DNA of 64,000 nucleotides from contig JAIWAR010000003.1 in the NCBI GenBank assembly GCA_048634245.1, positions 2,401 through 66,400 on the forward strand, written 5' to 3'. Every line of letters starts with the position of its first letter. Within the stretch, counting starts at the first letter, position 1. The position numbers and the translations under genes were made by a program. Shown here piece after piece: positions 2-43,100 of this stretch. This DNA is from Methanosarcinales archaeon. GTDB taxonomy: Bacteria; Omnitrophota; Gorgyraeia; Duberdicusellales; 4484-171. The notes beneath the pieces are model-generated. The model saw only the letters and a list, made by a program, of their open reading frames with translations. It searched no databases and was not told the origin of the DNA.

Positions 2-1100
2 GAAACAGTATTTAGGAATAGAGAAGAGCAGGAAAGAAAGTTAAGGAAGGAGATAGAAAGAGCAAAGGATAGAGGAGAAAATACACAAGGAATGGGAGCG
101 ATGAGTCCGGAAGAAGTGACTCGTTTTGTAAACTTTTTTGAGCGGTTGACAGTACATATGCTGGAGGAGATGCCTAAGAGAGCAGATCTGGTATTTGAGA
201 TGAGTGGCGGACATAGGATAAAGAATGTTTATCGTAATGAAAAATATGACGGGGGGAGTGAAAAATCGGATTTAAGTAAACATACAGGATCAGTTAAAGT
301 AACGGGGATAGTCAATGGCGTAGATATACAAAAGGTATTAGAGAAATACAATTTATCAAATATGCCTGCAGACACTGATGAAGAGATAAATGAGTTTAGG
401 GTGGCTTTAGCAGGGGCGATACGAGAAGAAGTGGGCGAAATAGATATCGGGTTGTTGATACCGTATTACCAGGAATATGGTAACGCGCCGCATGTGTTAA
501 GGACAATGATTGCCGGGTATGAGGGGTACTTTTCGGATAAACGAGCAGTGGTCATTGCGGTAGGGACAAAGGCCGCGGGTGAAGCCGGAGAACGAGCGCG
601 AGTATTATTAGAGGAAGAAGCGAATAAGCATGAGGGGAATCTTAATATTATAATTTTACACCTTGATGAAATAGAGAGAGGAAAAGGCCGCGGTTTGAGA
701 TGGGCATTTACGATTGCGCACGCCTTAAGGGCAGAGGCGATATTGCATTTAGACGCGGATTTGTATACAGAGATTAAAGGTGTATCGAGCAGAGAAAAAG
801 CAATTAATTGGAAAGAGTGCCCGGAAGAAAAATTCATGAGTTATATGGAATCACATCGTTTGCGTGGATTAAGCCCCTACTGGATAAAAGCGATGGTGGA
901 ACCGGTACTAGAGAGAGAAGTTGGATTAGTACTTCCGTACTATGTGCGGCCGATATTTGACGGAATGATTACTAAGTTTCTTATGTACATATGGGCTGTA
1001 GTATTTTATAAAGTAAATATAGAGCAGATAATCGCCGGAGATTTTTGTTTGTCAGGTAAGTTCGTGGATATGCTGTTAGAAGATGAGAAATTGTGGAAGG
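2..1100 (+). other. Domain: C-terminal part of a diverged GT-A glycosyltransferase, glucosyl-3-phosphoglycerate synthase (GT81)-like paralog (copy 0, continues upstream of window)
   Basis: Peptide ...IERGKGRGLRWAFTIAHALRAEAILHLDADLY... (nt ~680-770) matches the GpgS core PGGKGxALxxGLxxAxGDIVVFLDADL including the DxD. Downstream layout RY.R....L.Y....Q..G.F..S parallels copies at 2180 and 13690. Confidence 0.4.
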
Positions 1101-22100: not shown

Positions 22101-25100
22101 GAAGGATTAAAGAATATCCTTCCGGTGTGCGTGAGAATGGAGGGCAATATACACATGCAGCTACCTGGTTAGTGTTAGCGTTGTCTCTTTTAGGAGAGAA
22201 AGAGAGAGCTTGTCAAACATTTAAAGATTTGCTACCGATAACCCATGATCCAGATATATACGAAGCTGAGCCGTATATACTTGCCGCAGATGTGTATGGG
22301 GTAGGGCATTTAGAAGGAAAAGCAGGTTGGACGTGGTATACCGGGGCTGCAGCCTGGTTGTTTAGAGCAGCAGTTGAAGGAATGTTGGGAATAAGATTAG
22401 AGAATGGAGAAATATCACTGAGTGGTTCTTTACCAAAACAGTTATCTCCTACTAAAGTGTTTCGAAAGGGAGAAAAAGACATTGTAAAAAAAGACGGGGG
22501 TAATAAATTTGATAAGGACATTTTTATTAAAGATATAAATGGGAAAAATTTAAAACTCATTGGGTATGTTTTTAGAGATTCGAGGGATATTTTTGACGGC
22601 GGCAGGACAGATGGAGGAAAGGATATTAATCTTATCATAGAATTTCTGATTATTTTAGAAAGTAAGCTCACTGATTCTAACGGGAATGTCCAGCAAGCTG
22701 TTGTTAGGGCCTTAGCTAGCGTATATCCGGAACTAATCCAACAAGAGAAAATGTCTTTATCCGCTTTAGAAAGCAAGCTTACTGATGCTGATCGGTATGT
22801 CCAGCAAGCTGTTGTTAGGGCCTTAGCTAGCGTATATCCGGAACTAATTCAACAAGAGAAAATGTCTTTATCCGCCTTAGAAAGTAAACTCACTGATTCT
22901 AACTGGGGTGTCCGGCAAGCTGCTGTTAAGGCTTTAGCCAGCATATATCCGAAATTAATCCAACAGGGGAAAACCCCTGATTTATCCGCCTTAGAAAGCA
23001 AGCTTACTGATTCTAACTGGGAGGTCCAGCAAGCTGCTGTTGAGGCCTTAGCCAGTGTATATCCGGAACTAATCCAACAAGGAAAAATGTCTTTATCCGC
23101 CTTAGAAAGTAAACTTACTGATGTTGACTGGCGTGTTCAGCAAACTGCTGTTAAGGCTTTAGCCAGCATATATCCGAAATTAATCCAACAGGGAAAAACC
23201 CCTGATTTATCCGCCTTAGAAAGTAAACTTACTGATGTTGACTGGCGTGTTCAGCAACCTGCTGTTGAGGCCTTAACCAGCATATACCCGGAACTAATCC
23301 AACAAGGGAAAATGTCTTTATCCGCCTTAGAAAGCAAGTTTATTGATTCTAACTGGAATATCCAGCAACCTGCTGTTAAGGCCTTAACTAGTATATATTC
23401 GAAATTAATCCAACAGGGAAAAACCCCTGATTTATCCGCCTTAAAAAACAAGCTTACCGATGCTGACTGGCGTGTCCAGCAAGCTGCTGTTGAGGCCTTA
23501 GCCAGCATATACCCGGAACTAATTCGTCAAGGGGAAATGAGTGATGAAGATTATGAAAAGTATGAATTGTGGAACGAGGAGAAAATGCCTTATCAGGAGG
23601 AAGTGATTAATGCATACCTTGCTGCGTCTGATCCTCGGATATTCATAACTTCTTTAAAGCAGAAAGCAGAGATAGCAGTAAACAAAGGGTTTGATTATAA
23701 AAATTCAAAGCAGTGCTGGTTTGCCTTTGTGGGAGTAAGGATAAAAGGGATAGACATAAATTGGGAGGAATTTACCAAGAGGATGGAAACTTTGGTAAGA
23801 TTTGACCAGAAGCACCCAGGCTATTTTAACTATCTTTTTACCAAAGTAAGAGGATTAAATATACTTGAAGTTAGCGCTGAAGGCATAAGGCAGACAGATG
23901 TAAGCAGTGTGGATAAAGAGGTTTTAACCAATAATGTTGAGCAATTGACACAGATAAAGAAAAAGATAGACAGCTTAACCTGGCTTAATGAATCTTTCCC
24001 GAAGGATAAGAAATTGAATCTACGCAACTTCTACTACCAGATAAAGAAGCAGGAGGTTTTAAAGCAGGGACAAATAAGGCAAAACGACAGATTCAGGGTT
24101 GAATTTCCTTCCCAAGAAGAAATGGAAGCTGAGATTAAGAATAACAAAAAACAGTTTTACCGTATAGCTTTCGAGTTAACCTACGCCAGGCTGGGTAACA
24201 GGCAAGAGCGGGGAAAATACCTTAAGTTGATAAGGGATTTAATAGTCAGCGATATACTTGAAGATGAAACTTTGCGAGTCCAGATGCATTCCTCCGACTT
24301 AGAAACAAAAATATCCGCCTTTAAAAACTTTTATGAGGACTACAAGAATCACCTTCCTGACTCTTCAGGAATAAAGGTAGGAAGCATAAAGGGATTAAGG
24401 GAGATGTTTGAAAATCTTTCCCAAAAGGTATATGAAGAATTAGCTAAGGTAACAGTAGTAAAAAAACAAGGTAAGGAAACCTACCACTTAATCCCCGCAG
24501 GATTTTTGGCCGTATTTAGAGGTAGAGCCGGTATACTTGACTGTTCTTTTGATGAAGATAAAGGCACTCCTTACACTCGGGCAATGCATGAGGATACTCT
24601 TTACTATTTTGTGTATAAAGGCAGAGAATTAAAGGGCTATATGGGGTTATGCTTGGGTGAAGCCAAAGATGGAAGGAAAATATTAACCGTAGACACCATG
24701 AATTCTCCTTCTTTAGACGGCAAGGAATTGTTAACCAATCTATTCAAGGAGTTAGCTGAAATAGGCGGGCAATTAGGCTGCTCCGGTATTGCTTTACCTG
24801 TTGTCTTAGAACCTTCGTTTAATTTTGATAATGAAGATACGATTTCGACGATGACGATTTATCAAAGAGCTAACAGAATAACTCTTAGGCCGGTTCACAA
24901 GGAGAGCTGGCAGAAATTTACTGATATGTTTGGTGAAGATACCTATAACAGCATAGAAAGCGGCTCCTTCAAATTACTGGATATCGTTATACCGGCTGTT
25001 GCAAGAAAAAGTAGTCAGCGAAAAGACCAAGAGAAAAATAGTAAGGTTAAGTCTGATTTAGGTGATGATGAGCTTGATGGTGGTGGTAAAGAAGAGATTG

Positions 25101-28100
25101 AAAAAATTAAGAACATTCTTCTTGATAAAGAGGATGTGGATACTCAAGAGCGGATTGATGCAATGAGAGATTTAGCTGATATTGGTACTCCCGGAGCTAT
25201 AGATGCATTGGCAACAGTACTTGATGTAAGAGAGAATAAACGGTTAAATAGCGATGAGCAATCTCCTTATTATAAAACAGAATCTGCAGATGTGATTGAA
25301 GAGTGTATCAGGTTACTAGGTAATTCAGGAGATTCTCAAGTAGTAGAAAAGTTGATGCGATTTCATGTGTGGCGTAGCTCTGATATTGGCCATAACCATA
25401 AAAGGTTTAGTATAGAAGGCGAAGTAGCATGGGAAGCTGTTTTTAAGGGGCTACTGTCATTGAGTAAAAAACCCGAAATAATGTCGGATTTAATAAAGTT
25501 GTATTATGATTCTAATAAACCAATTGTTCGCTCAATGATATTTGGAATAGCTAAACGTGATATTATTAAGAATCAGGAAATCGCGGAAGCACTACGTTTG
25601 AGAAAAACATTGGGAACTAAGATTAAGATAAAAATCAGAAAAATTATTAATCGTAAAATAGAAGCGTGTGAAAATTTTATTAAGTATCATTTAACTCAGT
25701 TTAGAAAAGTAGTTAGGAGTTTTTTACAGAATAAGCGGAAAATACATTTATTTTCTACCGGGACAGCGGATTATATTTTTTACCCGGAAGCTCATAATTT
25801 GGAATCTCAACTCTTTAACAAAATTTCATTGGAAGAAGTAGATGCGGTTATACTTGAATCAGGGAATGCTAATTATAGAAGATTATTTTATTCGGTTATC
25901 CGCGAAGATTCACAAAACGGTAATCTTATAGAAAGACTTAAAAAGTTTAATACCCCTACATTTTTTGTAGGCTTGCCGGATTATACATGGTTTCGTTATC
26001 ATCCGCTAAGTAATTTCTTGATATGCTTTGCCGTAGAGATATTTCAGATGGGCTTGCCTTTCTTGTTTTATTTTCTTTCTTGTGTGTTTATTCCCGGGTT
26101 ATCATGGTCAGGGAGTATAGGGTATATCTTGTTGTTGCCTTTTTGGTTATCAATCATCTCAGCGTTTAATCTCTTTAGTAAAAAAGCATTATTTATAAAT
26201 AAGTACCTTTCCCTTATTGCGTTTTACGGAAATTATGGGAATTCTTCACTGGTAAGTGCAGTATTAGCGAGAAAAACAGATGAATATATTGTTCCTGAGA
26301 TGAAGAGAAGAATTGGCAGAACTCCGACTATTGTGATATCTTACGGTGCTCACCATGCAAATATTGTAGTTTATTTGAAACATAAATGGCTTAGAGACTT
26401 TGTGATAAAATTTCATAGCGTATTTTGGAGAAATTTTCCGATAGATAAGAGATATCTTACAAGAATTGGAGAGCTTGATTTTTATAATAATTGGTGTGAC
26501 GAGTATGAAATGTCAGGAGTAAGCAATTTAAAAGAAATCAACGACGGCGGCAGGGGATTAAGAAATAAGTCATGGGTTTCAGGTTCTATGTCACAGGTTA
26601 CAAAAAGCTTTGCGAATTTTGTCAGCGAGTATGGCATTCTTTTAGGAGTGATTGATGTATCCTCGGGGATATTTGCTTTTTCTGCGATAGGTATCGCATT
26701 AGCAACTATGTTGCTTAATGGTATCCCATTTGCTGCGATATTTACATTAGAGAATATATCAACACCATTATTTATTGCTTTAGCAGTAATTTTAATCGAT
26801 CAAATCAGCAAACTAGTGGCAGTATGTAAGGAAATACATGAGATAGCTGTTAAGCAGATTAATATTCCCGTAACTTTAGGTATTTTTGCCGGAATAGTAC
26901 TTTTTGTTTCTACCTTTAAGATACTCGGAATTTTTGGCTGTATTGGGGGGGGGTTAATATTAGGGGGACTTATAAGCAATGTAGCAATTGATCTTATGGT
27001 TAGGGGAGGGTCAATAGACTGGATTACTGATCCACTTGATAAGGACAAAGTGATGAATATTGCGGATATTGCCGGAGTTACAGGGATGTTGTTGATAGGC
27101 ATAGGATCAATCTTTGGATTGTGGAGTTTAAGATGGGAGATAATCAAATTATTATCTAATGTGGAATTATATATGATAGTCAGTTTTCTCACCGGCGTTT
27201 TTATAACCTTAATAGTTAATTATAAACTTAAAAAGAAAAACAAATCAGGAGATGAAAATATCTTTTCAGAGCATACGGATGGCGGGAGTAATTATGGTAT
27301 TGTTAATGCGGTACAAAGAGGTTTACAAAAATTTAAGGGTGTAGTTAGTAAGGAAGAAGATACTGTATCTTCTGATAGGATTCAAGACGTTAGAGAATTT
27401 ATTAGAAGTTATTCCGATGATGAAAATATTTTGGGTATAGTTGTTTACGGCAGTGTAGCTGAAGGAACTGCTGTGTTAGCAAGTGATCTTGACTTTTTGG
27501 TAATAAAACAAAAAGGTGATACATTTTTAGCTTATGAGGAGAAAGATATGGAGTTCGTTAGACAGATGAAAGAAAAATTTAGTTATATAGAGCATTTACC
27601 AGGAGCGCCATTAATATTGAATTCATCTATCGATAAAGAACCATACCAATCCTTGGATGCCATTTTAATGTTATATTTTGTACCCTTTGAGACAATCGGT
27701 GCAATATTGTTAAATGGCCGTGAAGGAAGCACTTGTTTTATCGCTAATTGGCAAGTTATAGCCAGAAATCAAGAATTAGAAGATTTTGTTACGAATCTAA
27801 TTCAAGAAAGGATTAATTTAATAATTCAAAATGAGGAGAAAAAATCCAAAGAACAAATAAAAAAAGGCGACAGTGGCAGAGCAAAGGATGGTGGTGAGGA
27901 ACCTTCACTTGATATTTCTAATCTTTTCTCTGACACGATATTTAAGCATTTTAGCAGAGAAGATTTTACTAACCTTGCCTCGCAACTGGCAGAGATACAG
28001 GAAAGATTTCGTAAAGATATTATTTCTTGTTTGACAGCAGAAGGCCGGAGAGTATTAAGTCAATCCTGGCGTGAATGGGTTATTTCCTGGATTGCCGGGA

Positions 28101-31100
28101 TGAGTGATGAGGCAATTGATGTTGTTTTAGCTAAAGGCCGAACAGAGGAAGAAAAAATAGCTATTTTATTGAATCCTCTAGAATTCATAGATAAGAACCC
28201 GGTAATTGAACGCATGATAAAGATTGCCGATGATGTGCGGGTAGAAGGCATAGAAGCCTGGGTGCATATAGGAGTAGGCGGGTCAAAACTGCCTACGGAA
28301 TCAGTGGTGAATCCGCTTATTTCTTCGGAACACAATTTACTTACCCGTGAATCCCGGGGTGAGGTGCCAAGGATATTCTGGTCAGGCGACAGCTTCTCAC
28401 CGGAGAAGCCAACGGCTATCTTAAAAGCCTTAGAGGATTTAGGTATATTGTTTAAGACTAAGTTTAATGTTATCTCCAAGTCCGGAACAACCGGTGAGCC
28501 GATATACTGTTACCTTATCTACCGTGCCTATTTACAGGAGCGCTTGAGAGATTTGAGTATAAGGTATAAAGAAGAAACAGTTACAGAAGAAGAGCTTAAC
28601 CAGATGGGTTTAACAATCAAGGATATCACTCCGATCAAGGATGAAGAAGGGGAAGAATATTTCCGGACTGGAAAATTCTTTATTGCTACCACAGGATTTG
28701 ATAAAGGAAGTGCTTTATTTAAGCTGCATCACCGCGGCAGAAATGAAGAAGAATTAAAGAATTTGAAAGATCTCTACGCAGGAACAGAATTCGATCCCTT
28801 CTATGCCATACTACCGGTACCTGAAGGAATGGGCGGAAGATTCTCCGGATTTTCAGCAGTAGCTTTATTGCTTTTGGCAGTGGCCGCGAATAAGAATAAA
28901 AATCAGACGTCGTATTCACAAATAAAAGAAGCAATGTTGGGAGTAGAAAAAGCCTTAAAACGGATGTTAGATGAGCCGGTAGAAGATTTAGGGAATAATC
29001 CGGCTAATATTGCCTTTACCAATGCGGCTGTCAATTATATTGCTGAAATTGAAAAAGGCATGCGCACGCTTATTGTATATTATTATGACCCGGTAAGCGG
29101 GATGATATTACCTATACATAATGAGATACATGCTGAGTCAGTAGAGGAATTCGGAAGAGGCCTACATATTAATACTGTGGTAGGCTCACCATATAATCAC
29201 ACCGGATTAGAAGGAATAATTGCCGGAAGAAGGGATGTAATAGTACGTCTTGTAATGACCGGAAAGTATAACAAGGAAGAGAATCCTGTTGTTCCGAAGA
29301 GGAGCGGGATAGGAGGAGAAGTAGCCTCAGGTGCGGGCTTTAGTTTAGGCACAATCCAGAATATATCCTGTATATCTACAGGAACGAGCTTGACAAACCC
29401 GGTATTACCTGATGGCAGCCGTCCGAAAGACAGAAACGGCAGAGAATTAGGAGGCGTTCTTAATCATATTCAGGTTATACCCCAGATAAATGTATTTAAT
29501 ATATTTGATTATTATTATACTTTAGCTACAGAGATTGCTGTATACGGGCGGTTATTAAGGTTGGATATTGAAATAAAAGAAGACGGGGCAATAGTAGATT
29601 TAACTTATTTACAGCCTTGGGTTGTAGGGTATAAAGAGGAAACAAGGGAGAATTTGGCAAGGTTAAGAGCAGTAAAATTATTGAGAAATGGAGAAAATGC
29701 CGACGGCGGCACCCCCACCCGAATACTAGTCAGCGCGGCAAATGCTTTGATATTCCGGTCAGGAGGTTTTTCAACCTTTGTAAACAACTATGACCCGGAA
29801 GTGGAATTAATAGCATTTAAGAGCCTTAGCGGGGCTAAAGGGTTAAGCGCGAAACAATTTGTAAGTCAGAACTTCCGGTTAAAAGGGCCATTTAGCGAGT
29901 ATGAAGTTAAAGGCTTACATTTAGGTAAAAAGGTCACAATAAATAATCTCAAAATAGATACTTTAGTTATACCTGAATCCAAAGATTTAAACCGTCCGGA
30001 ACAAGTTATACTTTATTTTGGCCCTGAAACAGCCTGGCCGGAAGTGCTCAAAGCCTTAGAAGGGAAGATAGACATAGCCGTAGAATACGGCCCGGGAAAA
30101 GAAGCAGGAGGCAAATTCCAGCCGGCAAGGATAAAGTTATTCATAGAACAAGGCCTACGGGTAGTATGCGCATCACCGGTAAACAAAGAAGGAATCAAAG
30201 AGATGTTAGCAGGATTAGGATATGACCCTGATCAGGCCTTTAAAGAAAGTCTATACGCGGTAAACAGAGATATAGTAGATGAATCTGTATTAGTGGTAGA
30301 CACATTATCCTGTACATCAAATGCGATGCTGGGAATAATCTGGGCCTTACAGAAAGCGATTGGCATAGACACAGGCACAGGTTTTACCATACATGCAGCC
30401 ACGCCTTCAAACAGTGTATTCCCCTCAGTTAGCGGCAGAGACCGCAGCCTGTTAGACTCCTTAAGAGGGGAACCGATAATAGACAACATGCAACCGGCTT
30501 CTACAGGAGCAGCTAAGAATCTTTTTAAGATACTACCTGAGTTAGAAGGCCGCTTTTTAATAAAGGCCTACAGGGTAGGCACATACAGCGGGTCTTCATT
30601 CTTAATAGATGTAGTATTAAACAGGAGCGCCGGTTTAGAAGAAATCAACGGAAGCCTTAAAGATTTTGCAGACAACAAATCCGGAGGGGTAGTTAAATAT
30701 TGGCAAGGCATACCGGGAGTAGATGAGAATCCGCTTACCTCGAAATTGATTGTAGGCTGGCCCTATGTATCCATAATAGACGGGCTATTAACAGAAATGA
30801 TAGGTGATAGAAGAGTAGTTATCCAAGGATTGTATGATAATCAGTCTGCAGCGCCCGGGCAGATGCTTGGGCCTTGGGCTACGTGGTTAGGGAATGTAAG
30901 TAAAAGAGATGGAGGAGAAACCGACGGGGGCCTGCGTGAAAAATCTCTTGTAAGATTTAGGATTTTATCCGGCGCGTTTTTTTACCCGCGTTCAAAAACG
31001 CCTATAGCGTTGCAGAGAGATAAATTCCTTCAAAGGTTTGCGTTATCCGAAGAGACGGGTAGTATTTTAAAAGAAGAATATATTTGTGCTTACAGAATAT

Positions 31101-34100
31101 TGGAGCAATTGGGATTAGCGCCGGCATTGGATGAAAATAAAAAGAATGAGCTTATAAAAAGAGCGATAAATTCCACCATAGAAACAACTTATTTAAGCTC
31201 GCCTGCTTCTTATAATTCCCTTTATGATTTGATAAGGATATCTAAGCCGTCTTATTCAGGCGAGTCTTTAATTTTGCTCAGGATCTTTGCGGTTCACGAG
31301 TTTGTGCATTATTTAATCAAACACAATTTTACCTTAATAAAAAAGGCCTATCTTGCTTCGGTAGTAGCTAACCTGAGATATATAGAGCTAATTGGCCTTG
31401 AGAGTAGCTATAAGACTCCTGTTTTAAACGGACAGTTATTACTAAGCTCTGCAGGAAAAAGAGCAGTAGACTTAGCTGCGGTTGATTACGGCCGCCATAT
31501 TGCCGGCCTTATACCGGATTTATCAACTCAGAGAGAGATGATTTTATGTGAGGCTATAAAGCAATCTCTTCCTATTTGGGAGCAGTTATTATTTGGCAAA
31601 GCACTTGTATTGTATTCTAAAGCAAAAATAAGTTTTCATAAGATATTGGGCTTATATCCGGAATATCCCTGGTCATATTTTCAGGGAGCAGCTGAGGCGG
31701 GTTTATATTTAGGTACAGGAAAAAAGAATATATGCGGTGTAGAAGGCATAGACGAAAATCGTGACGGCAGCAGCAACGAAGTCACAAGGTCATCAGTTGA
31801 GGAGGTTTTTGACGAGGAAGTAAATAAGGAGAGCGCGAATGCCGATAATGATTTTCATAAAGCATTTATGGCGTGGAGAGAAAATTTTATTGTTCTACGT
31901 TCATCCTCAGAAATTCATGAACGGATGACTATAGAAGAAAACAAAAAAAATCATATAGTGGTTGGTTTATATAAAGTGTGGGAAGCTGGAGCAATTATAA
32001 GAGAGGGTATAATTAAAAATAGGAAGCCGAAAGATATGGCAGATTATGTTGAGTTACTTCTTAAGGAAGCTGCTTTAGAAAGAAAAGCGGGAGGGAGAGA
32101 TGATAATTATAGAGAATTAACAATATTATCAGAAAATTCCTTAGAAGTCGTTCTAATGGCAATAGAAGCTATAAAAGAAAAAATCCCAGTAAAAACTATT
32201 AACGATGAAGGTATTAAAGATTTTGTGGATTCGATTATACCAACTGAACTAAGACTTACGATAGAAAAAGTATTATCCCGGTCTTTATTTAATATAGATT
32301 TAAAATTAAAGGGGCTGCCTAGCTTGGAATTAGAAGCTGCTAAGCCTTGGATAAAGGAATATTTATCTTTTGGCGAAGAAGACGCGGTATCCGACCCGCG
32401 GGTTAATATTAATTTTACAGATAGAGTTAAATTATTAGAAGAAAGGGAATCATTCCTTTCTGATGCCGGCAGAGGCTATCTTATAAAATTGCAGGGTTCG
32501 ATAAAGAAAAAGAATTACAGACTTTTAGAAAAACTTAAGAAAGATTTTCCTTCCGTTAATAATCCTCATCTTGATTATTTCAAACCCCTACAGATAGGAA
32601 ATAAAACAGAACTAAAAGCTATAATTGAAAACTTGTCTGTTTTGCAAATTACTAAAGGATGTTCTCACGGTTGTAAAGGATGTTACTATAAAGCAGGCAA
32701 ACCGGTAAAAGCGATGCCATTTTACCGCATAATTCAAATTTTGGCAGCAGCTAAAGATCTAACTAATAACAAAATGATGAGTCGGGATATTCTATATAAG
32801 AATGGTATTGTACCTTTAATACTCTATCGCGATAGTGAAATGTTTGATTATTACGATCCTATTTATGATGCTGATGCGGGAGATGTTATGGCGGCAATTC
32901 TCGAGTATCATCCTAAACAGACAATTGGTATAACAACTAGAGGATGGTATTTGGGCGATCAAATAGGCATGAGAGCGGCAAAAAAAGTAGCGGAGCTGAT
33001 GAAGGATAATTCAATTTATATTAGATTTAGTTTAGACTTATATGATACTAAAAATAATTTATTCCAGTATATACGCCGTATGGTTAGAGTATTAAGTATA
33101 TTTTCAAAAGCAGGGTTTTCAAGACAGCAAAAGAGTATTATATATTCTTATGGAATTAACGGGGCTGATTTTGAGGCTATTTCCAGAATAGTCAATCTGA
33201 TAATATTTCTCACCTCAATAGATATATGTGAAAAAGAAAAGCGTGTTCGTCTGCCGCCTATAGGGATAAATAGCATGTCTTTTGAGAAATATGGTGGATT
33301 AAGAGAGTCTATTGATTCTTGTATCACAGGATTTGATATTATGCCGAATGGTCAAATTTCAAAAGGCGAAATGTCTGTTGATGGACAGTTAAAACTGATA
33401 GAGAAAAGGCTTTGGCAGTCAGAGGAGGCTATAGATATAACCCCACTTCTTCCTAGAAGAATTAAGTCTAAGTGTGAAGTAGAACCTATAATACTTGACG
33501 GCAGCAGAACGGAGGTAGGGCCACAGGCCGCAATAAGCTGCAGGTCACAAGCCATAAATCAGGAAGAGATACAAGATATTATTGTCTGTGACGGCGGGGA
33601 ATATAACGCGGCGGGAATTATCCCTGATCAACGTGCAGTATGGAGTCAAGATAAGAAGGCGGAACAGATTACGCCGCACGAATTTGCTAAGGCGATTCTA
33701 AATGATATACCAGAAGGGACAAATATTCTTTCTCTCGGATGTGGGAGGAAAGGTTTAGACGAAATGCTTTTGGCAAGAGCAGGACATCATGTCGTTGCTA
33801 TGGATTTTATAGGATCACGTATTAACGAATTGAAGGAAAAGATTAAGGGAGTAAAGATAGAGAATCTAGAAGCCAAGATTCAAGATATTGCTGAACCTTT
33901 CGATTTTTCAAATGAGTCCTTTGACGTAGTTTATAGTCATCTAAAAGCAAAGAAACCTTCCTTCCAAGACGGCGGACGCGGGCACAAGTCAATAAATAAT
34001 ACTGATGAAATTCCGCTTTCACCGTATGCTAAGTCAAGATTAAGCTTGCTAGGAACTTTTCTTCTTATTGTCTTTATAGGCTTTGGATTGCCCTTCACTT

Positions 34101-37100
34101 TGTATTTGCTGTATGTTCACTTAATGGAAAATAAGTTATCTTTAAATTTCAATACTTTTCTGATAGGTATACTTGTTGCCATCCCATATCTTTTTGGGAT
34201 TATTCCTTATATTTCGATGAAAATAAATGAAAAGAGGGTTGACGAAGAAAACAGAGAAGATTTCAGACAGTCGTTGGTTGTTAAAAAGGTACACGAAAAA
34301 ATTTTAAAGAATGGAGCACAGTTAAATACGCCAATACAGGGAGTGCAAACAGTAGAAAAGAATATTGCGGGGGGATGGGGTTTACATGAAGTAGAGTCAC
34401 AATTCGACCAGGTGTCGTGGGGAAATGTTAAAGGAGAAATTGAAGGGACAATTTATGGTATTTTTGGAGAGAAGTTTTCCGGGGATGTAAATGCGGATTT
34501 CAGGTCGAAAACTACACCAATACTGGATGATGAGGCAATATTTTTTAAACTTAGGAAAGATGATCAAGTGATAAGGATTATTTCTCCCAGTGTCGGGATG
34601 ATAGAAGCAGTAGTAAGAGAATATGTGAATAATTTGGCAGATAAATATCCCGAGGGCTCTCATACGAATATAGCAATAAAGGCAATGGCAGACGGCCCTT
34701 ATCCTATTACGAGGAATTTAAATCAGTTAAATCCTGCTTATATCCAGGATACTTTAAAATTGCTCAGTAAATCAGCTGATGACGAGCTTATTTCAGGGCG
34801 TTTTGTCGGGGTGGAAGCCCTTCCTTCTTCAGAAAAAAGGAATATATTCTGGGGTATCAATATCTTGCTTGAAAACCAAGAAGAGGGATTGGTTAATCAT
34901 CCTTTGTTTCCGGTTAATACGCTCCGGTCAATTTTTGAAAGACTTACGCCTTTATTTCCTAAGGGGAGTGAAGACGCAGAGTTAGACGCCCCGTTTGAAC
35001 GATTGCTGTCCGTAGGGAAATCAGAACATGACTATGATAAAGAACAAAGCGGTGTAGAAGGCATAGAGGAAAATAGTGACAGAGACAAGAGTGATAAAGA
35101 TGGAGGTGAATTCAATTGTGCAGAATTTAGTGCGATGGCAAAGATACTTAAAGAACAAGGAGTAAGGGGTGAATTTCATTTGAAGATTATTTTAAGATAT
35201 AAGACTAAAGAAGAGCTGGAAGATAGGGTCGCAGAAATTCTAAAAGTAATAGAAGTGATAGAAAAGTCAACCAGTATACCAGATTTTAGAATGTCTATGT
35301 CAAGCCGAGTCGCCATCCTCAAAACTTATCTTAAAAATAATAAAAAAGAAATATTCCCAGAAACCATTGTTTCCGGGCCGGTTATGGATAATTTCATAGA
35401 TGTTCTGAAGGGAAGAAATGAGTATCAGCAAATGAAAACAATTTCTGATGGCAGAGAAAGGACTTTGGAATCAGATGTGGGGATGTTTACTGTAAGTGAT
35501 TATAATGCTTTACAGAAGGAAGCTGAGACAAAAATTCTTCGTATATTAGAGAGAAGAGGGCTACGAATATTTAGGGAAATTGATTCTTCAAAGCAGCCAA
35601 GCGGCATTATGGATTGGCATAGAAAGTACATTTATGAATTCCTTGATAACTTTAATTTTCACGGCGGAATAAGGCTATTTTTAACGGGGGGACAATTTAG
35701 TGATTGTATTCTTAAAGCTTTCAGTGCCGCTCTTTTCTATGCCCTATATAAAAAGAATACGCCTATTCATATTATTTTAGTTGAAGAAGCTATAGCCGAT
35801 GGCGATAATCCCGGAATTAGAGAGGATTGTTATATAGACCTTATTAAGCAATTAAAGCTTAATTCAATTATTTTTGTTGATGGAGCAGTTGAGAGAGAAA
35901 ACAGGTTATATCCTGATAAGAATTTTGCTGTTGTAGTTTCTTTTTATACCACAGTGGATGAGTTTGAGAAATATTATCCGAACCAGCTTTGTTCATTGGA
36001 GGCGGATAATTATCAGATTATTAGGGATTTACTGGAGGAAAAGGAAATCCCTCAGAAAAAATCTGACGAAGTAATTGCTCATTTGGTAAGAATTACAGAA
36101 ACTACAGGGATAAGTCAGCTTCAGGCCATTACCTTTTTAGTTAAATTAATTACTTTCAAGCCGGTCTCAAGAGATATTAGCAGCTATAATGATTTAATCT
36201 TTGCGATAGAGCGAGCCGGAGAAGTTGTTGTTGGTGCTGTTGAAACCGTAGATAGTTGGTATAGACTGCAGGCGATTACTGCTTTAGATGAATTCTTTTC
36301 CTATGATTGGGTGTTAAAGCATATTAAAGGTTTGGATGATTTGCTTTCTGTGATAAAAGAAGTTAGAGATACGACTAAGGGGTCAGGCGAGTTTCAATTT
36401 GAAGCTATCGCTGTTTTAGGTAAATTAATTACTGTCGGGCCTAGTGCAAAAGACAGTAAAAACCTTGATGATCTGCTTTTTAGAATAAAGAGTATAGGAG
36501 ATGCGGTTGACAATGCTACTAGATCCGCGGGTGAATTTCAAGCAGAAGCTATTATTATTCTGTTTGAATTTATTAGTTCAGAATCTGTTTTGCAATGCGT
36601 TGGAAATTTTAGTGAATTGCTTTTTGCTTTGGACCGTATCGAAATATATATAGGCTATAAACAAGATTCGCAAACAACAAAAGCATTAGAAGATATAACT
36701 GTAAGTAATGTTTTTAATCCTGAAAAGTTAGAACATACAAGCAATTTCAGGCCGGTTGACTGCAAACAAGGAATAACTAATGCTCGTATTAACAATGACG
36801 GTGGTATAGAAAAGGCGGTAATAAAAGGCTATGAAAATATAGAAGAAAAAATCAAACCGCTTGTGCTTGTTATTCTGGATGGTTGGGGGTGTTCAAAGGA
36901 GCCTTTCGGTAACGCGATTGCGCAAGCCCAAACGCCTAATTACGATAGATTAGTAGAAAGCTGTCCTTCGACTATTCTTAAGGCCTCGGGAGAGGCAGTA
37001 GGTTTGCCTGCCGGTGTGATGGGGAATTCTGAAGTGGGCCATTTGAATATTGGCGCAGGATTAATAGTTCCTCAGGATGTATCAATAATTAATGCTGCCA

Positions 37101-40100
37101 TTGAGGACAATACTTTCTTCTCCAATAGTGTTTTAAAAGATATTACTATACATCTTAAGGCTAACCCCGGAAGCAGCCTTCATATTATGGGATTAATATC
37201 CGATGCGGTTATTCATTCCAGCATGGATCATCTTCTTGCTTTATTAACATTCGCTAAGAATGAAGGATTAGAGAGGGTATATATTGATGCTATTACTGAC
37301 GGAAGGGATTCTGACCGGGAAAGCAGTCTGCAGTGGATAGAAAATCTTCAGGAAGGGGCGAATAGAATCGGCACAGGAAAGATAGCAACGGGTATAGGGA
37401 GGTCTCGTCCTATGGATAGGGATAATAATTGGGGGGTGATTAAACCGGCATATAATTTGTACACTCAGGGAATAGCTGTTAACCGGGAAAAAGACGCCTT
37501 AACTGCTTTAAGAAAATCTCATGACAGAGGAATAACCGATGAATTCATAGAACCGACAGTAATAATTGGTGAAAATGGTGAGCCTCTGGCAATAATTAAG
37601 GATAATGATGTAGTTATATTTTTTAATTTCCGTGCTGACCGGGCCAGGCAGATAACCCGGGCTTTTATGGACAAAGATTTTAAAGGATTCAAACGTGAAA
37701 TTCAGCCTAAAGTTAAATGGGTTTGTATGACTGAGTATGATGAGACATTTTATCAGTTTGATAATCTTTCGGTGATGTCCCCGCCTCAAAAACTTGCTAA
37801 TACTTTGGCTGAGGTCTTGTCGAAAAATGGGCGTAGGCAATTGCATATTGCCGAAACACAAAAATTCGCGCATGTTACTTTCTTTTTCAACGGAAGGGAA
37901 GAAAAGCCTTTTAGCGGCGAAGAACGAATTCTTATCTCTTCCCTCAAAGACATCACCTTTGATAAAGCACCGGCAATGTCTGCCTATGAAGTTACAGAGG
38001 AGTTGATTAAAGAAATGCGAAATTATGATGTTTCCATAGTTAATATAGCCAATGCTGATATGGTAGGCCATACCGGAGTTTTGGAAGCAACTGTTACAGC
38101 AGTAGAGGTAGTGGATGAATGTGTAGGAAGGATAGTGGATGAAGTTGAAAAACAGGGCGGCATAGCTCTTATTATCGCTGACCACGGTAATGCTGAAGCT
38201 ATGGTTACGAAAAAAGGTAAGTCTCTTACTAAACATACTACAAATCCTGTGCCTTTTATTTTGGTGGATTCGCAGGGAACTTTAGGCAAAGTAGAGTTAA
38301 GAGAGGGAGCTTTGTGCGATGTTACGCCGACTATGTTAAAGATTTTAGGCATAGACCAGCCAAAAGAAATGACTGGCAGGAGTCTCATAATAAAAGCTGA
38401 CGGGGGCTGGGAGGTGAAGATTTTTGAGTCTGATGAAGAGCGTGATTGGGTAGCACTTAAAAAGTCGGATATCTCTAAGAGATTAATAGGAGAAGCCGAG
38501 GATTATGGTGATGTGCCAGACAATTTTATGTTTTTTATTCTTGTAGGAGACAGCAAAGCACATGGAGGAGCAGTAATTAATATAGAACATAGGCTGGGTT
38601 TTGAGGTTAAGTATTTTGATATTTTTCCACAAAGACAAGGTTTAGGAAGAGTACTCTGGAAACATATAGCAAAGGAGTTGCTTAAGGAGAGGTTTGAATA
38701 TGGGTATGTTACTCCCGAAGATAATAATGCAAGAAAGTTTTGGTTAAAACAAAAATTTTACGAAGTTAAGGGTAGAAGCTCGCTATATATTGATAAGGCA
38801 GGTTTAGAATATATAGCCTTCGGAAAAGGCCTTTTAGATAATGATTCTGCCGTATCTAAGGAAGTGACTTGTCGTGACGGAGGCACAAAAGAAGAGATTA
38901 TATTACTTTCTTCAGCAGAGACGGCTAATTTAAGGATTGTAGAAAAAGAGGAATTGATTCCGGATGCTATGGCCTTTATGGGGAAAGACTTTCGCGGGCA
39001 AAAGGGCTCTCTGGCCGTATTAAAGGAGTTGGTAAAAAAGGGCCTTGTGGCATATAACGGCCCTAAAGGGAAGGGTATTCAGTTAACTGAAGATGCCAAA
39101 GAGCTTTTAGATGCGGGTAAAATAGGAGAAAAAGTAGAGAAACCGGAAAAGAAAAGAATAATAAAGAAGGATATTTTTCTCTCTACAGCAGAATGGATTG
39201 TGCTTAATAAGGTGAGATTGGGATTAGGTTGTACTTTGAATGATTTTACCGGAGGTTATCAAGATGGAGCAGAACTACTCATAGAGAAAGGCCTCTTAGA
39301 GATTAGAGACGATGGTGTTTTAAAAACTACAGAATTTTATAAAAAATTATCTCGAGAAGGAAGAATTAAAAAGGAAACAGAAAAAAGCTCTAGGCCAGCC
39401 TGGACTATAAAGAGAGAAACTGCCGGGGTTAAGGTGCCGAGTAAAAGTATTTCTAAAAGTGAACTTTTTGGGGAATTTGTGAGGAGGGTAATAGAAAACA
39501 TCAACGGAGGGGAAAAGAGAGAAGGAATTTTTAAAGGAATTGAGAGAAAGGATTTAGGATATACCTCAATAAGTGGTTTCCGTAAGGCAAAGATAAGAGT
39601 CGATGCTTTTTTAGACGATATTATATTTGATTCCTATAATGATGAGCCGGTTTTAGCGGAAAGCATTAACCCTAAAAATATTATCCCTGTAAAGAAAGCT
39701 AAAGCGTTTAATGAGTTAAGGAATAAGGTAGTGCAGGAAACACTAGATGGAATGAATGGTTCTGAAGTTAGCTTAAGCGGAATATTTTGTATCTTTACGC
39801 TAACTTTATGGCGCAATATTTCTCGCAAACGAAAAGGAGGCAGTTTTGATATTGCTGTAGCCCCTTTAATCACAAAGGAAATCGTAGAACAACTGGGGTA
39901 TTCAGCAAAAATAATGCAGAAGAAGGGGCGTTTATATATTGTAGTAATTGACAAGAATAAAGGGAAAAAATATAGATTTGCCTTAAAAGAGACATTTGGG
40001 ATGAACGAGTTTCAAAGGGCGAGTTATATATCAGACGTCAAACACCGGCTATCTCTGCCTGAGAATGATTGCGGGAAAGACGGCGGCAAAGAATCGTTTG

Positions 40101-43100
40101 ACGCACAGGAAGAGTGGCTATCTTCTCTGCTAGAGAAGGTAAAAAACGGCAAAGCAGTTATTGCCGGCCTGGGAGCGACTTCCTTGCCGGATAAAGAGCA
40201 AGGTAAACCCATAGGTTGGGCATTGGCCTTGTTTTATCGTTTAGCCGGCAAACAACATTTAATTATCGGTTCATCTTCTAGCATTGGGAAAGCGCTTGAT
40301 GCGAAGAAATGGATTGAAGGTAATTTTAAAGAGCAAATAGAGAAATCTATAGATACAATGATGAATGAAGATGCGGCAAAAGCAGCGAATATAGTGGTGA
40401 TAGGCGTGCCCGCCCAATATACTCTTTCGACTTTAATTGAATTAAAGAATAGCGGCTTAAAAAATAAATTAATATGGGTATGCGGAGTGCCGATGCGAGA
40501 GCCGGAAGACTGGATAACCAGCAGAAGAAAGGGGAAAAAGGTGAAATTTAGATTTTATGAGAAGCCCTCTGAATATCTTGTTGAATATTTGCGGGGCAAT
40601 GAAGAATATATATCAAAATGCTCTGAGTGTGAATCTATGGGGGAAGTAATTGCGGTTATTATGGAAGGTACAGGCAACGTGGTAGTAAACGCCGGCAATA
40701 ATATACCGGCATTTAAAATGGGAAGAAAAGATATTCTTCCTTACGAAGTGGAAGTATGTACTGATAATGCTGCGGCCGGGCAAATAGTTTCTCGGTTACT
40801 TAAGATGGTAGATGAGAATTTAGAGCCGGTTATACATAAATTAAGCTATAGTTACCGGATGGAGTCAAGAACTCCCTGGTATGCGATGTATCCTGTGCTT
40901 TTGAAATTAACTATTGAGCAGTTTGAAAAGTTAAGAAAAAAAATTGGATTAGTACATTTTGAGCGCTCAAGAAGAGTTACTTTTAGAAGAACAAGAGGAT
41001 TGCTTAAAGAGTTGGTTGGTTCTGAAGTTCAATCTGCTAAAAGCCCGAAGCGGTTTGAGGATGGGGGAAGAATCAGCATTAAAAATAATCAAGCCTGGCA
41101 GCAATTAAAGGACGGAGACCTCTCCGTGGTTGGATGGCACCGTTCGCTGCTAGGTCTGTTTTCTTTTGCGGGTAAACAACTACCCGAATATTCAGCACTT
41201 TTATTCTACACTCCGCCGAAAAAAGAATTAATAGCTATTGTAGCTTTGCTGTCCTTACCAATTATTTTTGAATATTTCCTAGCCTTCTTACCTATATATG
41301 GCTTCCCTTTGCAAATTATAGTTCTTGTGGGACTTTTTAATTCAGCACCTAAAGAAGGCAAACCCAAGAATAATGACACAAAAGGGTGGAAAGAAGCGAT
41401 GGGAGAATTAAGAAAAGATTTTATACAACGAGAAGAAAATTTAAAAGTTGTAATGGAAACTGAATTTAATAAGAAAATAGATGATTTGAGGAAAGATTTT
41501 GAAGAAAAGACCGCAATAGATTCAGGTATTAGGAATGAGATGAATTATGCAGATTCTAGTAAAAATGAAAATTATGAAACTGCAACTATAGAAGTGCTTA
41601 TAAAAAAGGCAGTAATAACAAATGGTGTAAGTTATTTTGTTAATAATGTAAATAATTTTATAGATTTATTTATAGATATTATTGCAGCGAGAAAGAACTT
41701 TGCTAAAGACGAACATATTTTAGGCGCGCTTAATAATAATATAAGCGAGAGGATAGAGGGTAGATTACGTAAGCCATATAATTGTTTTCTCGATTTTTTA
41801 GAAAGTCAATTTCTTGTAGATAAAATTATTAAGATGTTAAGTAAATGCAACAAGGTTAGAATAGAAGAAGTCAACGGTTTTAAATCAGCAATTGTAGAAT
41901 TAGGAGCAACCAGCAAAGCCTATAATAAAATTAATAAAAGAAGAGGCATAAAGAGAAGAATGTATCTGTATAAGATGAAATTGAAAAAGGAAAATTTAGA
42001 AAATCTTCCTGCCGGCTCAATGTTAATTTTGGAAGACAAGAAAAGCAATCGTTTTCACGCAGTTCGTTATGTAGAATTTAAGAATAATAAAGTTGAAGTT
42101 ATCGATAGTGACCCTGTGAGCCATAAACAAGGACCAAAAGAAATAGAAATGAAGGATATTTTAACCGACGAAAACGGAAAAATCATTGTTGTTACTTTTG
42201 AAGAATTAAGTAAAGAAGACATTGATGGCCTTGAAAATTTTGAAGGAGACGGTATTTGGGTTTATGGAATTGCTTCCAGTGGTGCAGCTAGTGAAGGGTC
42301 AACCGGTAGTGGAGCAGCTGGCAGTAACGCTGATAGCTCTTCAGGAAGTGCGGATGGCGGAACTTTGGACAGCGGTGGAATTGGAAGCGGCCTTCCTCCC
42401 AGTATTACAGGAAAAAGCGTAAGTAGTTTATTGGTGAATAGTAATATTTTTGACGGAGGATGCGTTACGAATAATCTTAATAATATGGCGATGTCGCAAA
42501 ATACCTTTTTGTCATTGTCCTTTTCCGACTTGAACGGAGGATTGCATAGAAATAATGGTTTAGTCCTTGCGTTCATACCTGTTGGTATTCCGGCCAGCGG
42601 TGGAAGAATTTTAGCTAGAAATAGTGCTAATGTTGATGGCGGTAAGCGCAAAGGCGGCCTAATAGATCAAAAAAGAGCGGGTAATATTAAAGAGGATGAG
42701 TCGGAAGCCCAAGTTTTGCTTACAGAGTTAATAATAGAGTGTCGAAACAGAAGAATTATTTTGCCGGAAGAAAGAGAAGAAGTTATGGCTAAATTGAAAG
42801 ATTCAGAGCTTATAGGACAGGTTTGTGACTTCCAGAGACATTTTAAAGAAGCCGGGTTTCCTGAACAACTTGCTTCGGTATTTAGTTTAGGATTAGTATT
42901 TACTCCTAGTTTTAAGAGTTGGATATCTCATTTAAATGAAATGGATGAAAAGCATAAAGAGGATAGAGATCTAGATAAACTTAAGAATGAGTATTTTACT
43001 AAAAAGAACCGGATTATTAGCATTGTTGTCGAGAAACTAAGAATATTTCTTGATGAACTTATTCCTATTACCGATATGGTAAAGGCTGAAGCAATCATCA

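Follow-up and report, generated by a model that had tools for sequence, protein, structure and literature searches.

We analysed 64,000 nucleotides of contig JAIWAR010000003.1 (forward-strand positions 2,401 to 66,400; NCBI assembly GCA_048634245.1), which is deposited as a Methanosarcinales archaeon and which GTDB places in the bacterial phylum Omnitrophota. We will call this stretch the window; nucleotide (nt) and amino acid (aa) positions are counted from its start. One open reading frame (ORF) on the plus strand, 2..64000, fills the window. This frame (frame 2) has zero stops in 21,333 codons, and the other five frames have 656–2,343 stops. A first-pass annotation of this DNA had reported about 10 kb of continuous frame with enzyme domains in it; the frame in fact runs past both ends of the window, so it has at least 21,333 codons. 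The window is part of one head-to-tail chain of about 40 protein-sized units, most of which are complete, and these units are separated by the tripeptide Asp-Gly-Gly (DGG). There are 42 DGG-bounded pieces of at least 20 aa, with a median length of about 400 aa.

We identified domains in the window with Pfam, NCBIfam, and PDB-sequence searches. The frame contains over 15 distinct families: CofD-like, phosphoglucomutase/phosphomannomutase (PGM/PMM), DUF3131 with PF10091 and GH94, HEAT, nucleotidyltransferase, phosphoglucose isomerase (PGI)-type, glyceraldehyde-3-phosphate dehydrogenase (GAPDH)-like, radical SAM, methyltransferase, cofactor-independent phosphoglycerate mutase (iPGM), a weak F420_oxidored match, GH15, and AAA_5. 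As first described, the enzymes are encoded within one giant, partly hydrophobic polypeptide. No RNA genes were found in the window by tRNA and Rfam searches. Purines predominate on the coding strand along the whole window: every 2-kb block has a positive GC skew (0.16–0.43), and all but two have a positive AT skew (range −0.02 to 0.27).

We counted DGG after a comparison of the window to a relative (P0001) showed the motif at each module junction. DGG occurs 44 times, versus 6.2 times expected from composition (7.1-fold; the next tripeptide is enriched 2.7-fold). In 2,000 block shuffles, DGG occurred 6.26 ± 2.5 times, with a maximum of 16. None of the 44 sites lies inside the recognised domain envelopes (3,915 aa), where 8.1 were expected. 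Instead, the sites are in short hydrophilic dips, and half of the domain envelopes start 15–38 residues after the end of the closest upstream DGG. The 44 sites are spelled by 23 different codon combinations, so the motif is selected as a peptide. Internal paralogues also extend from delimiter to delimiter (aa 698-1130 versus 4540-4968, 84% identity; aa 16325-16475 versus 18327-18491, 56% identity). Units duplicate, are deleted, and reshuffle as blocks between delimiters.

The clearest unit is a canonical iPGM at 36806..38398 (aa 12269-12799), which has Pfam, PDB, and NCBIfam matches. Its domains (nt 36,854-38,356) match Metalloenzyme and iPGM_N (E = 6e-80; PF01676, 268.8 bits; PF06415, 242.1 bits). 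The unit is about 55% identical to the iPGM of Geobacillus stearothermophilus (1EJJ) and aligns to residues 4-511 of 511 (E = 1.5e-152). It scores 605.3 bits against TIGR01307, above the equivalog cutoff of 330.65, and covers the full length of the profile (1-504 of 504). In the alignment to 1EJJ, the unit retains Ser62, Asp12/Asp403/His407/Asp444/His445/His462, and His123, Arg153, Asp154, Arg185, Arg191, Arg261, Arg264, and Lys336. We take these to be the phospho-serine, the metal ligands, and the substrate-binding residues. Also, of the 128 columns with at least 98% conservation among 119 stand-alone iPGMs, the unit keeps 113 and has changes in 15. The ratio of nonsynonymous to synonymous substitution rates (dN/dS) against the nearest relative (L002) is 0.27, and by this measure the iPGM is under purifying selection. 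The first-pass claim of a full-length iPGM with all of the canonical motifs, including the phospho-serine, is thus borne out: the equivalog cutoff is passed and every catalytic or ligand residue that we mapped is kept. Judging from these residues, the unit looks catalytically competent. It is the same full-length two-domain enzyme as canonical GpmI (1EJJ), with the same active-site residues, but it is embedded in the giant frame between two DGG delimiters instead of being encoded by a free-standing gene. The upstream delimiter is at 36797..36805 (aa 12266-12268) and is conserved in the nearest relative (L002) as LQQDGGLKE. The downstream delimiter, at 38399..38407 (aa 12800-12802), comes directly after the native C-terminus: the median C-terminus of the 119 stand-alone iPGMs is at aa 12,799, which is the residue directly before DGG.

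Two further observations concern the iPGM. Among its best 119 matches (50–55% identity, P0001 apart), the named sources are Methanosarcinaceae (Methanococcoides, Methanolobus) and Firmicutes, including Peptococcaceae and Thermoanaerobacteraceae, and no Omnitrophota are among those named matches. The iPGM may have been acquired horizontally. Antisense to this unit is an ATG-initiated ORF of 242 aa (37508-38236, minus strand), which probably reflects the strong constraint on the sense strand.

A divergent member of the PGI family lies at 27896..29701 (aa 9299-9900) and was identified by PDB and family-profile matches. The single sequence matches a PGI of known structure, 3ifs_A, with E = 5e-10. 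A profile of the PGI-type family matches solved PGIs with E = 4e-61 (3ifs_A residues 58-428 of 453), so the homology extends across both SIS domains. The sequence alone has no match to PF00342 at E ≤ 1, and its best NCBIfam PGI score is 65 bits (cutoff 443). The first-pass annotation described a PGI domain with both PGI signatures. The homology to PGI and the catalytic residues are indeed present, but neither PROSITE pattern (PS00765 or PS00174) matches; the sequence has just the GGRFS core and, in degenerate form, YLQPWVVGYK. In an 11-member alignment of the PGI-type family (including the window), E414/S415, H435, K580/Q573, R315, S130, and S194-T199 vary little or not at all. These columns align with the PGI motifs ESEGK, LHS, QPGVEAY(K), GGRFS, and SKSGTT, and we take them to include the catalytic Glu, His, Lys, and Arg and the phosphate-binding Ser and Thr. 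Given the conservation of these columns, the unit looks catalytically competent.

In Candidatus Omnitrophota, members of the PGI-type family are also encoded as separate proteins of about 470–540 aa. One stand-alone member (P0125) has a precomputed match to PF00342 and is encoded near lgt, lspA, a riboflavin operon, and nusB. From this distribution, the PGI-type unit is evidently the ordinary housekeeping PGI of Omnitrophota, fused here in frame. In nine stand-alone PGI-family proteins, the native termini correspond to residues 0 and 595 of the 602-residue module, so the native C-terminus is 7 residues before DGG. The delimiter at the upstream border is at 27887..27895 (aa 9296-9298) and aligns with DNGG in a relative (P0121). 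The delimiter between the PGI-type and GAPDH-like modules is at 29702..29710 (aa 9901-9903) and is conserved in P0001 as ESDGGTPTRIL. The stand-alone members of this divergent family are labelled "hypothetical protein" in NCBI (for instance, L005:10001-11551, from the Omnitrophota metagenome-assembled genome (MAG) GCA_016214265.1). PGI was counted in 67 of 176 Omnitrophota genomes (Nielsen and Lui 2026). We speculate that the divergent PGI is missed by pipelines based on KO assignments, which could add to this low count.

The next module, at 29711..30907 (aa 9904-10302), belongs to the GAPDH superfamily but has a degenerate NAD site. Its C-terminal domain (nt 30,335-30,823) matches PF02800 with E = 4e-15 (56 bits, versus a cutoff of 24.4), and the Cys149/His176 dyad is present (SCTSN at nt 30,308, TIHAAT at nt 30,386). 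Thr179, Thr208-Gly209, Arg231, and Asn313 are retained as well. There is no Pfam match to the NAD-binding domain (PF00044). All seven columns of the N-G-x-G-R-I-G-R motif have changed, and the module has also lost the Asn of the AIN strand and both arginines of the DLR...RAR segment (the anion site). Overall, 31 of 61 conserved GAPDH columns are kept, and the TIGR01534 score is 90.3 bits (equivalog cutoff, 367.2). An AlphaFold 2 model of this module had a mean confidence (pLDDT) of 74.7, and its top Foldseek matches were GAPDHs (E about 1e-23), although the model was built from an alignment of GAPDHs and is biased by that input. Single-sequence AlphaFold gave a pLDDT of 32, which is unusable. 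In the nearest relative (P0321/P0001), the unit lacks an equivalent of aa 10,136-10,282 of the window (about 147 aa, which include the STGAAK/Arg231 region); its N-terminal half is 87–89% identical to the window's, with dN/dS of 0.11. The first-pass annotation was correct about the GAPDH-family domain with its catalytic Cys and His, but with the NAD-binding motif lost, this is not a credible GAPDH. These alignments suggest that the unit is of the GAPDH fold and is probably not a GAPDH. Its borders are again those of a stand-alone protein: in 36 GAPDHs, the native termini correspond to residues 1 and 396 of the 399-residue module, and the C-terminus is 3 residues before DGG. (The native N-termini of the stand-alone PGIs and GAPDHs all align to module residues 0–3.) The module is followed by a double delimiter at 30908..30931 (aa 10303-10305 and 10308-10310), beyond which the radical-SAM-like module begins.

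A PGM/PMM phosphohexomutase module lies further upstream, at 11984..13609 (aa 3995-4536), with delimiters directly before it at 11975..11983 (aa 3992-3994) and directly after it at 13610..13618 (aa 4537-4539). All four of its Pfam domains (PF02878, PF02879, PF02880, and PF00408; nt 12,047-13,528) score above their cutoffs, and the active-site loops TASHNP, DGDADR, GEESA, and RLSGTQ are all present, so this module is as the first-pass annotation described it. It scores 178 bits against Arch_GlmM (cutoff 439), and it does not reach the cutoff of any NCBIfam equivalog. With its loops intact, it looks catalytically competent.

Across the iPGM, PGI-type, and GAPDH-like units, then, a conserved junction motif lies at, or within a few residues of, the native ends of whole proteins, as would be expected of a processed polyprotein.

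The remaining units between the GAPDH-like and iPGM modules were described at first as a radical-SAM-like domain, a methyltransferase, and membrane helices. Features of all three are there, but two are weaker than this implies. The radical-SAM-like module is at 30932..33589 (aa 10311-11196); it has the cluster motif CxxxCxxC (nt 32,660-32,683; aa 10,887), but its PF04055 score of 27.6 bits is below the gathering cutoff of 29.5. After a delimiter at 33590..33598 (aa 11197-11199), the class I SAM-methyltransferase (33599..33967; aa 11200-11322; PF13649, 29 bits) is a fragment of 123 aa, and its NCBIfam matches span only the N-terminal half of those profiles. The next delimiter (33968..33976; aa 11323-11325) is conserved in P0001 and P0321 as ETDGGEKDK. 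The membrane-helix module, at 33977..35098 (aa 11326-11699), has three hydrophobic helices at aa 11,343-11,386 (hydropathy peaks at aa 11,343, 11,354, and 11,386), which are transmembrane-like by hydropathy only. This module is 57–67% identical to its counterparts in P0001 and P0321, with dN/dS of about 1. It ends at a delimiter at 35099..35107 (aa 11700-11702), where P0321 also has DGG, followed by a different module. In the window, the unit that follows (35108..36796; aa 11703-12265; 563 aa) has no Pfam or NCBIfam match.

Close relatives of the window were found only among contigs or fragments from Candidatus Omnitrophota MAGs, which are 70–88% identical per module and have a similar GC content (37%). 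In a set of 5.8 billion proteins, there were no high-identity relatives of the window proteins except for three fragments (P0001, P0321, and P0121). A scan of genome contigs for relatives found only a GAPDH from Micrarchaeota with 29% identity, and two scans of metagenome contigs found none. The nearest relative (P0001/L002) is a contig of 2,848 nt whose frame is open from end to end, and it encodes an iPGM (71.5% identity), followed directly by the GAPDH-like unit (87%) and then by the membrane unit. P0321 extends this lineage into a metallophosphoesterase unit that is absent from the window. In all of these (L002, P0001, and P0321), DGG is kept at the junctions, yet the order of the modules and their neighbours differ from the window.

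In more distant relatives, the delimiter is longer. Relatives of the PGI-type module at about 43% identity have DNGG at both borders, and the Asn aligns with the Asp of the window. One of these relatives lies on a 49-kb ENA contig; in 23 kb of it (L007), one frame has 3 stops and the others have 707–871. Across the 7,694 codons of this frame, DNGG occurs 20 times, versus 0.09 times expected, at spacings of 56–971 residues. It brackets units of the radical-SAM/SPASM (364 aa), GNAT (165 aa), histidine-kinase, and PGI types; in the histidine-kinase-type unit, HATPase_c ends 5 residues before the next DNGG. Another Omnitrophica MAG contig that is open from end to end (L004) has four DNGG. Each lineage keeps strictly to one version of the delimiter (DGG in the window, DNGG in L007). 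Comparing these sequences, the common form of the delimiter is [DN]GG, and it is found in two independent lineages. A few in-frame stops interrupt the giant frames of relatives, at L007:9986, 13082, and 14033 and at L003:244 and 2542 (two in 3.3 kb). One of these is a TAG that replaces a conserved Lys (AAG) in a PGI-type unit, and another TAG interrupts a TPR array; in both cases the frame downstream is open and coding-like. The stops could be nonsense polymorphisms, assembly errors, sites of read-through, or early decay.

The delimiter also has its own synonymous-codon preference. In the window, the residue before GG favours the codon ending in C: 59% of these Asp codons are GAC, versus 21% elsewhere (44 sites, p = 4.5e-8). 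In L007 (20 DNGG sites), the corresponding Asn codon is AAC at 55% of sites, versus 26% elsewhere. In both lineages, the first Gly favours GGC (41–65% versus 21–25%), and the GC content of the flanking sequence is ordinary. This preference could reflect selection for accuracy, a signal at the level of RNA or translation, or a common junction sequence. We also considered whether DGG might be an in-frame Shine-Dalgarno sequence (GGAGG). We rejected this because GGA is the first Gly codon at only 10 of the 44 sites, 23 codon versions are used, and there is no start codon at a fixed distance. A DNA repeat was rejected because of the 23 codon versions and the ordinary flanking GC.

We propose that the giant gene encodes a polyprotein-like chain of complete enzymes that is probably processed at [DN]GG. 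We consider this to be the best explanation, with a probability of roughly 0.5. For the processing step taken by itself, our confidence ranges from even odds down to somewhat lower. In this proposal, [DN]GG would be recognised and the chain would be cut there. The cut might be made after Gly-Gly, by a C39-type or another GG-specific cysteine protease. Alternatively, it might be made after Asp or Asn by a legumain-like enzyme, or the chain might cleave itself by Asn/Asp-Gly succinimide chemistry. Release might also be co-translational. The reported C39 domains in giant proteins favour the Gly-Gly cut, while the interchange of Asp and Asn is what an Asn/Asp-specific cut or succinimide chemistry would predict. 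That each lineage keeps so strictly to its own version is easier to reconcile with a recognition factor that co-evolves with it than with a passive hinge. After release, the iPGM, PGI, and phosphohexomutase would each act on phosphorylated sugars as a normal free enzyme of the cytoplasm. Phosphorylated intermediates are not expected outside cells. Since their substrates are phosphorylated intermediates, we expect these three units to be in the cytoplasm, which agrees with the topology favoured by Nielsen and Lui (2026) rather than an extracellular location.

Several points weigh against our proposal. Cleavage of the chain, and even its translation, are inferred from the sequence. We did not find a protease domain in the 64-kb window, beyond which the ORF continues. 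(Proteases and glycolytic enzymes were sought with Pfam at 1e-3 and with phmmer against PDB sequences on about 12,500 aa of unannotated sequence, which yielded only CofD/YvcK-like and GH15 matches, besides weak matches to GNAT and NleF that were below the threshold.) Chance would account for about 6 of the 44 DGG, and the one at aa 2381 (PHDDGGASRKL) appears to be intrinsic to a CofD-like domain instead of being at a junction. Fragmentary units, such as the 123-aa methyltransferase and pieces of 30–97 aa, are odd for released enzymes. A linker that contains GG could be a simple hinge. Finally, distantly related long proteins with PGI-type domains (P0124, 6,752 aa; P0200, 5,426 aa; P0130; P0127; and P0181) have no excess of DGG or NGG. 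Because of these proteins, we consider the delimiter to be restricted to certain lineages.

The strongest alternative is that the chain is never cut, and is instead a membrane-tethered mega-enzyme, with [DN]GG as a flexible hinge and with the enzymes working side by side on glucan-derived sugar phosphates. There is a carbohydrate theme in the window (GH94 with DUF3131/PF10091, GH15, phosphohexomutase, PGI-type, and iPGM), there are hydrophobic segments, and the window has no detected protease. Moreover, Nielsen and Lui (2026) favour membrane-anchored cytoplasmic giants with a sugar-metabolism module. However, the enzymes present catalyse non-consecutive steps, and those for the steps between them are missing: Pfam and PDB searches detected no phosphofructokinase, aldolase, triosephosphate isomerase (TPI), phosphoglycerate kinase (PGK), or enolase anywhere in the window. 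The order of the modules differs in the nearest relative, and unrelated modules are interspersed. Also, a passive hinge is unlikely to be an invariant word of 3–4 residues that is strict within each lineage and has its own synonymous-codon preference. We consider an uncut mega-enzyme to be less likely than a processed chain.

The first-pass annotation had gone further, and suggested a metabolon that channels intermediates. This seems unlikely because the enzymes present do not catalyse successive steps, those for the steps in between were not found in the window, the nearest relative has the units in another order, and unrelated units are interleaved (radical SAM, the methyltransferase fragment, nucleotidyltransferase, HEAT, and AAA); also, what DGG bounds are whole native proteins. 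There are natural fusions of glycolytic enzymes, such as PGK-TPI in Thermotoga and the mitochondrial TPI-GAPDH of stramenopiles. The window resembles these in that enzymes of central carbon metabolism are covalently linked. But those fusions join two consecutive steps in a protein of normal size, while the enzymes in the window are non-consecutive and interleaved with other units, and their order is not conserved.

Two other explanations seem doubtful. First, [DN]GG might be mainly a DNA-level recombination junction ([GA]AC-GGC-GGN) for gene-sized cassettes, without a role in the protein. This would account for duplication and reshuffling exactly at the delimiters and for the preference for C-ending codons (GAC, AAC, and GGC) in both lineages. 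However, the 44 sites use 23 codon combinations, the motif is kept as amino acids across the Asp and Asn lineages, and nine bases is very short for homologous recombination. Selection for accurate translation at a critical residue would explain the codon preference equally well. Second, the enzyme folds might be co-opted as binding, sensing, or scaffolding pseudo-enzymes in an extracellular machine for predation or adhesion, as in the Archaeovorin-type proposal. West-Roberts et al. (2023) place such domains in predicted extracellular regions. The GAPDH-like unit would fit this idea: it has lost the NAD motif and the anion-site arginines, and its catalytic half is deleted in a relative, even as the N-terminal half is conserved (dN/dS 0.11). 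In contrast, the iPGM retains 113 of 128 columns and all known catalytic and ligand residues and passes the equivalog cutoff, and the PGI-type and phosphohexomutase units keep their catalytic residues or loops. Phosphorylated substrates are not expected outside cells, either. Co-option of the folds, which the first-pass annotation raised as well, is thus plausible for the GAPDH-like module only.

It is very unlikely that the frame is a pseudogene or arose artificially, from a chimaeric assembly or from coding sequences that were strung together: related giant frames do have a few in-frame stops (3 in 23 kb of L007 and 2 in 3.3 kb of L003), but 21,333 stop-free codons cannot arise or persist by chance, two modules have dN/dS of 0.11–0.27, the same architecture is found on independent MAG contigs from different studies, and known genes strung together would have database matches, which most of the frame lacks. 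An alternative genetic code, or an artefact of concatenated coding sequences, was rejected given that the frame has no stops of any kind, is mostly unmatched, and has the same design in independent MAG contigs.

Processing of polyproteins at Gly-Gly has precedents: polyubiquitin, pp220 and pp62 of African swine fever virus (ASFV), the LXGG sites of coronavirus PLpro, and double-glycine leader systems. As in polyubiquitin, ubiquitin-ribosomal fusions, ASFV pp220/pp62, and coronavirus polyproteins, whole proteins lie in one frame in the window, with a GG junction at their native termini. The differences are that Asp or Asn before GG is conserved here, which fits an Asn/Asp-specific cut equally well, and that cleavage is here a proposal, with no protease found in the window. 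Double-glycine leader/C39 systems are a relevant parallel in that C39-type domains have been reported in Omnitrophota giants. Another parallel is with MARTX and large clostridial toxins, which have 2,500–5,300 aa and are cut after Leu by an internal cysteine protease domain that is activated by inositol phosphate. These toxins are also very large, with unrelated modules whose repertoire is shuffled between strains and which are released by cleavage of the linkers; but they carry toxin effectors, and the chain in the window has enzymes of central metabolism. We know of no cellular polyprotein that comprises dozens of unrelated housekeeping-type enzymes.

Giant multi-enzyme ORFs are already known from Omnitrophota. 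ORFs of more than 20 kb are common in this phylum (Seymour et al. 2023). Domains such as triosephosphate and glucose-phosphate isomerases, FBPase, PGM/PMM, and aldolase-like domains have been found in Omnitrophota giants, as have C39 (double-glycine) and S8 peptidase domains, which "might cleave the giant proteins", although the cleavage points were then unknown (West-Roberts et al. 2023). Nielsen and Lui (2026) described "class 1 multi-enzyme metabolic clusters" with sugar metabolism, radical SAM, methyltransferase, F420-oxidoreductase, and HEAT/Adaptin-N domains. The window matches this class: it has at least 10,000 aa and many Pfams, none of which dominates. Like other Omnitrophota giants, it has an ORF of tens of kb with transmembrane segments, is mostly unannotated, and has phosphoglucomutase and HEAT/Adaptin-N-type content. 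The glycolysis-type domains are therefore real but less surprising than they first seemed, as such domains were published for Omnitrophota giants in 2023 and 2026. The window differs from those giants in that the main text of neither preprint (West-Roberts et al. 2023; Nielsen and Lui 2026) mentions iPGM or GAPDH-like modules. Dockerin domains, and the SecA-DEAD, C39, and S8 domains of Archaeovorin-type giants, were not found in the 64-kb window; both ends of the ORF lie beyond it, as do the neighbouring genes, which for Archaeovorin-type giants include secretion-system genes. Furthermore, the units in the window are visibly punctuated by [DN]GG. We found no mention of a junction motif, linker, cleavage site, or polyprotein model in the text of the two giant-protein preprints or of the Nature Microbiology paper (Seymour et al. 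2023), and a wider literature search found no DGG/DNGG processing motif or polyprotein model for giant proteins. So, while the multi-enzyme giant ORF was already known, we did not find its punctuation by [DN]GG to be reported.

Other parts of the window also show repetition. The pair of paralogues with 84% identity comprises two delimiter-bounded units of 433 and 429 aa (2093-3391 and 13619-14905) that are alike from end to end, and there is a weaker paralogue at aa 86-694. CofD/YvcK-like paralogues lie at 3401-6796 and 6851-9226; the unit at aa 1134-2265 is 48–60% identical to the two units at aa 2284-2380 and 2384-3075. A tandem array at 22655-23523 (7.7 copies with a period of 111 nt, or 37 aa, and 81% matching) encodes HEAT repeats, which explains why the words LIQQ and YPEL are enriched. 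The stretch at 17675-22390 groups two GH94 supersandwich/catalytic regions with DUF3131 and PF10091 ("putative glucoamylase"), a combination that we take to be linked to beta-1,2-glucan metabolism; further on, at 46,091-47,386, is a GH15 glucoamylase unit.

West-Roberts et al. (2023) left open whether giant proteins are cut, and [DN]GG turns this into a testable question. The motif is also a practical rule for dividing giant proteins into units for structure prediction and annotation. More tentatively, and at less than even odds, we suggest that some Omnitrophota encode a cellular polyprotein of over 20,000 residues, with dozens of complete, unrelated enzymes, among them working housekeeping enzymes such as iPGM and PGI, that would be set free at the [DN]GG version of each lineage. 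In that case, a giant "protein" would be an operon without stop codons, and the delimiter would be the missing cleavage map. A single start codon would then serve many unrelated enzymes, a way of organising genes that is otherwise known chiefly in viruses. Metabolic reconstructions of these small-genome bacteria would also have to count enzymes as "missing" or "present" in a different way.

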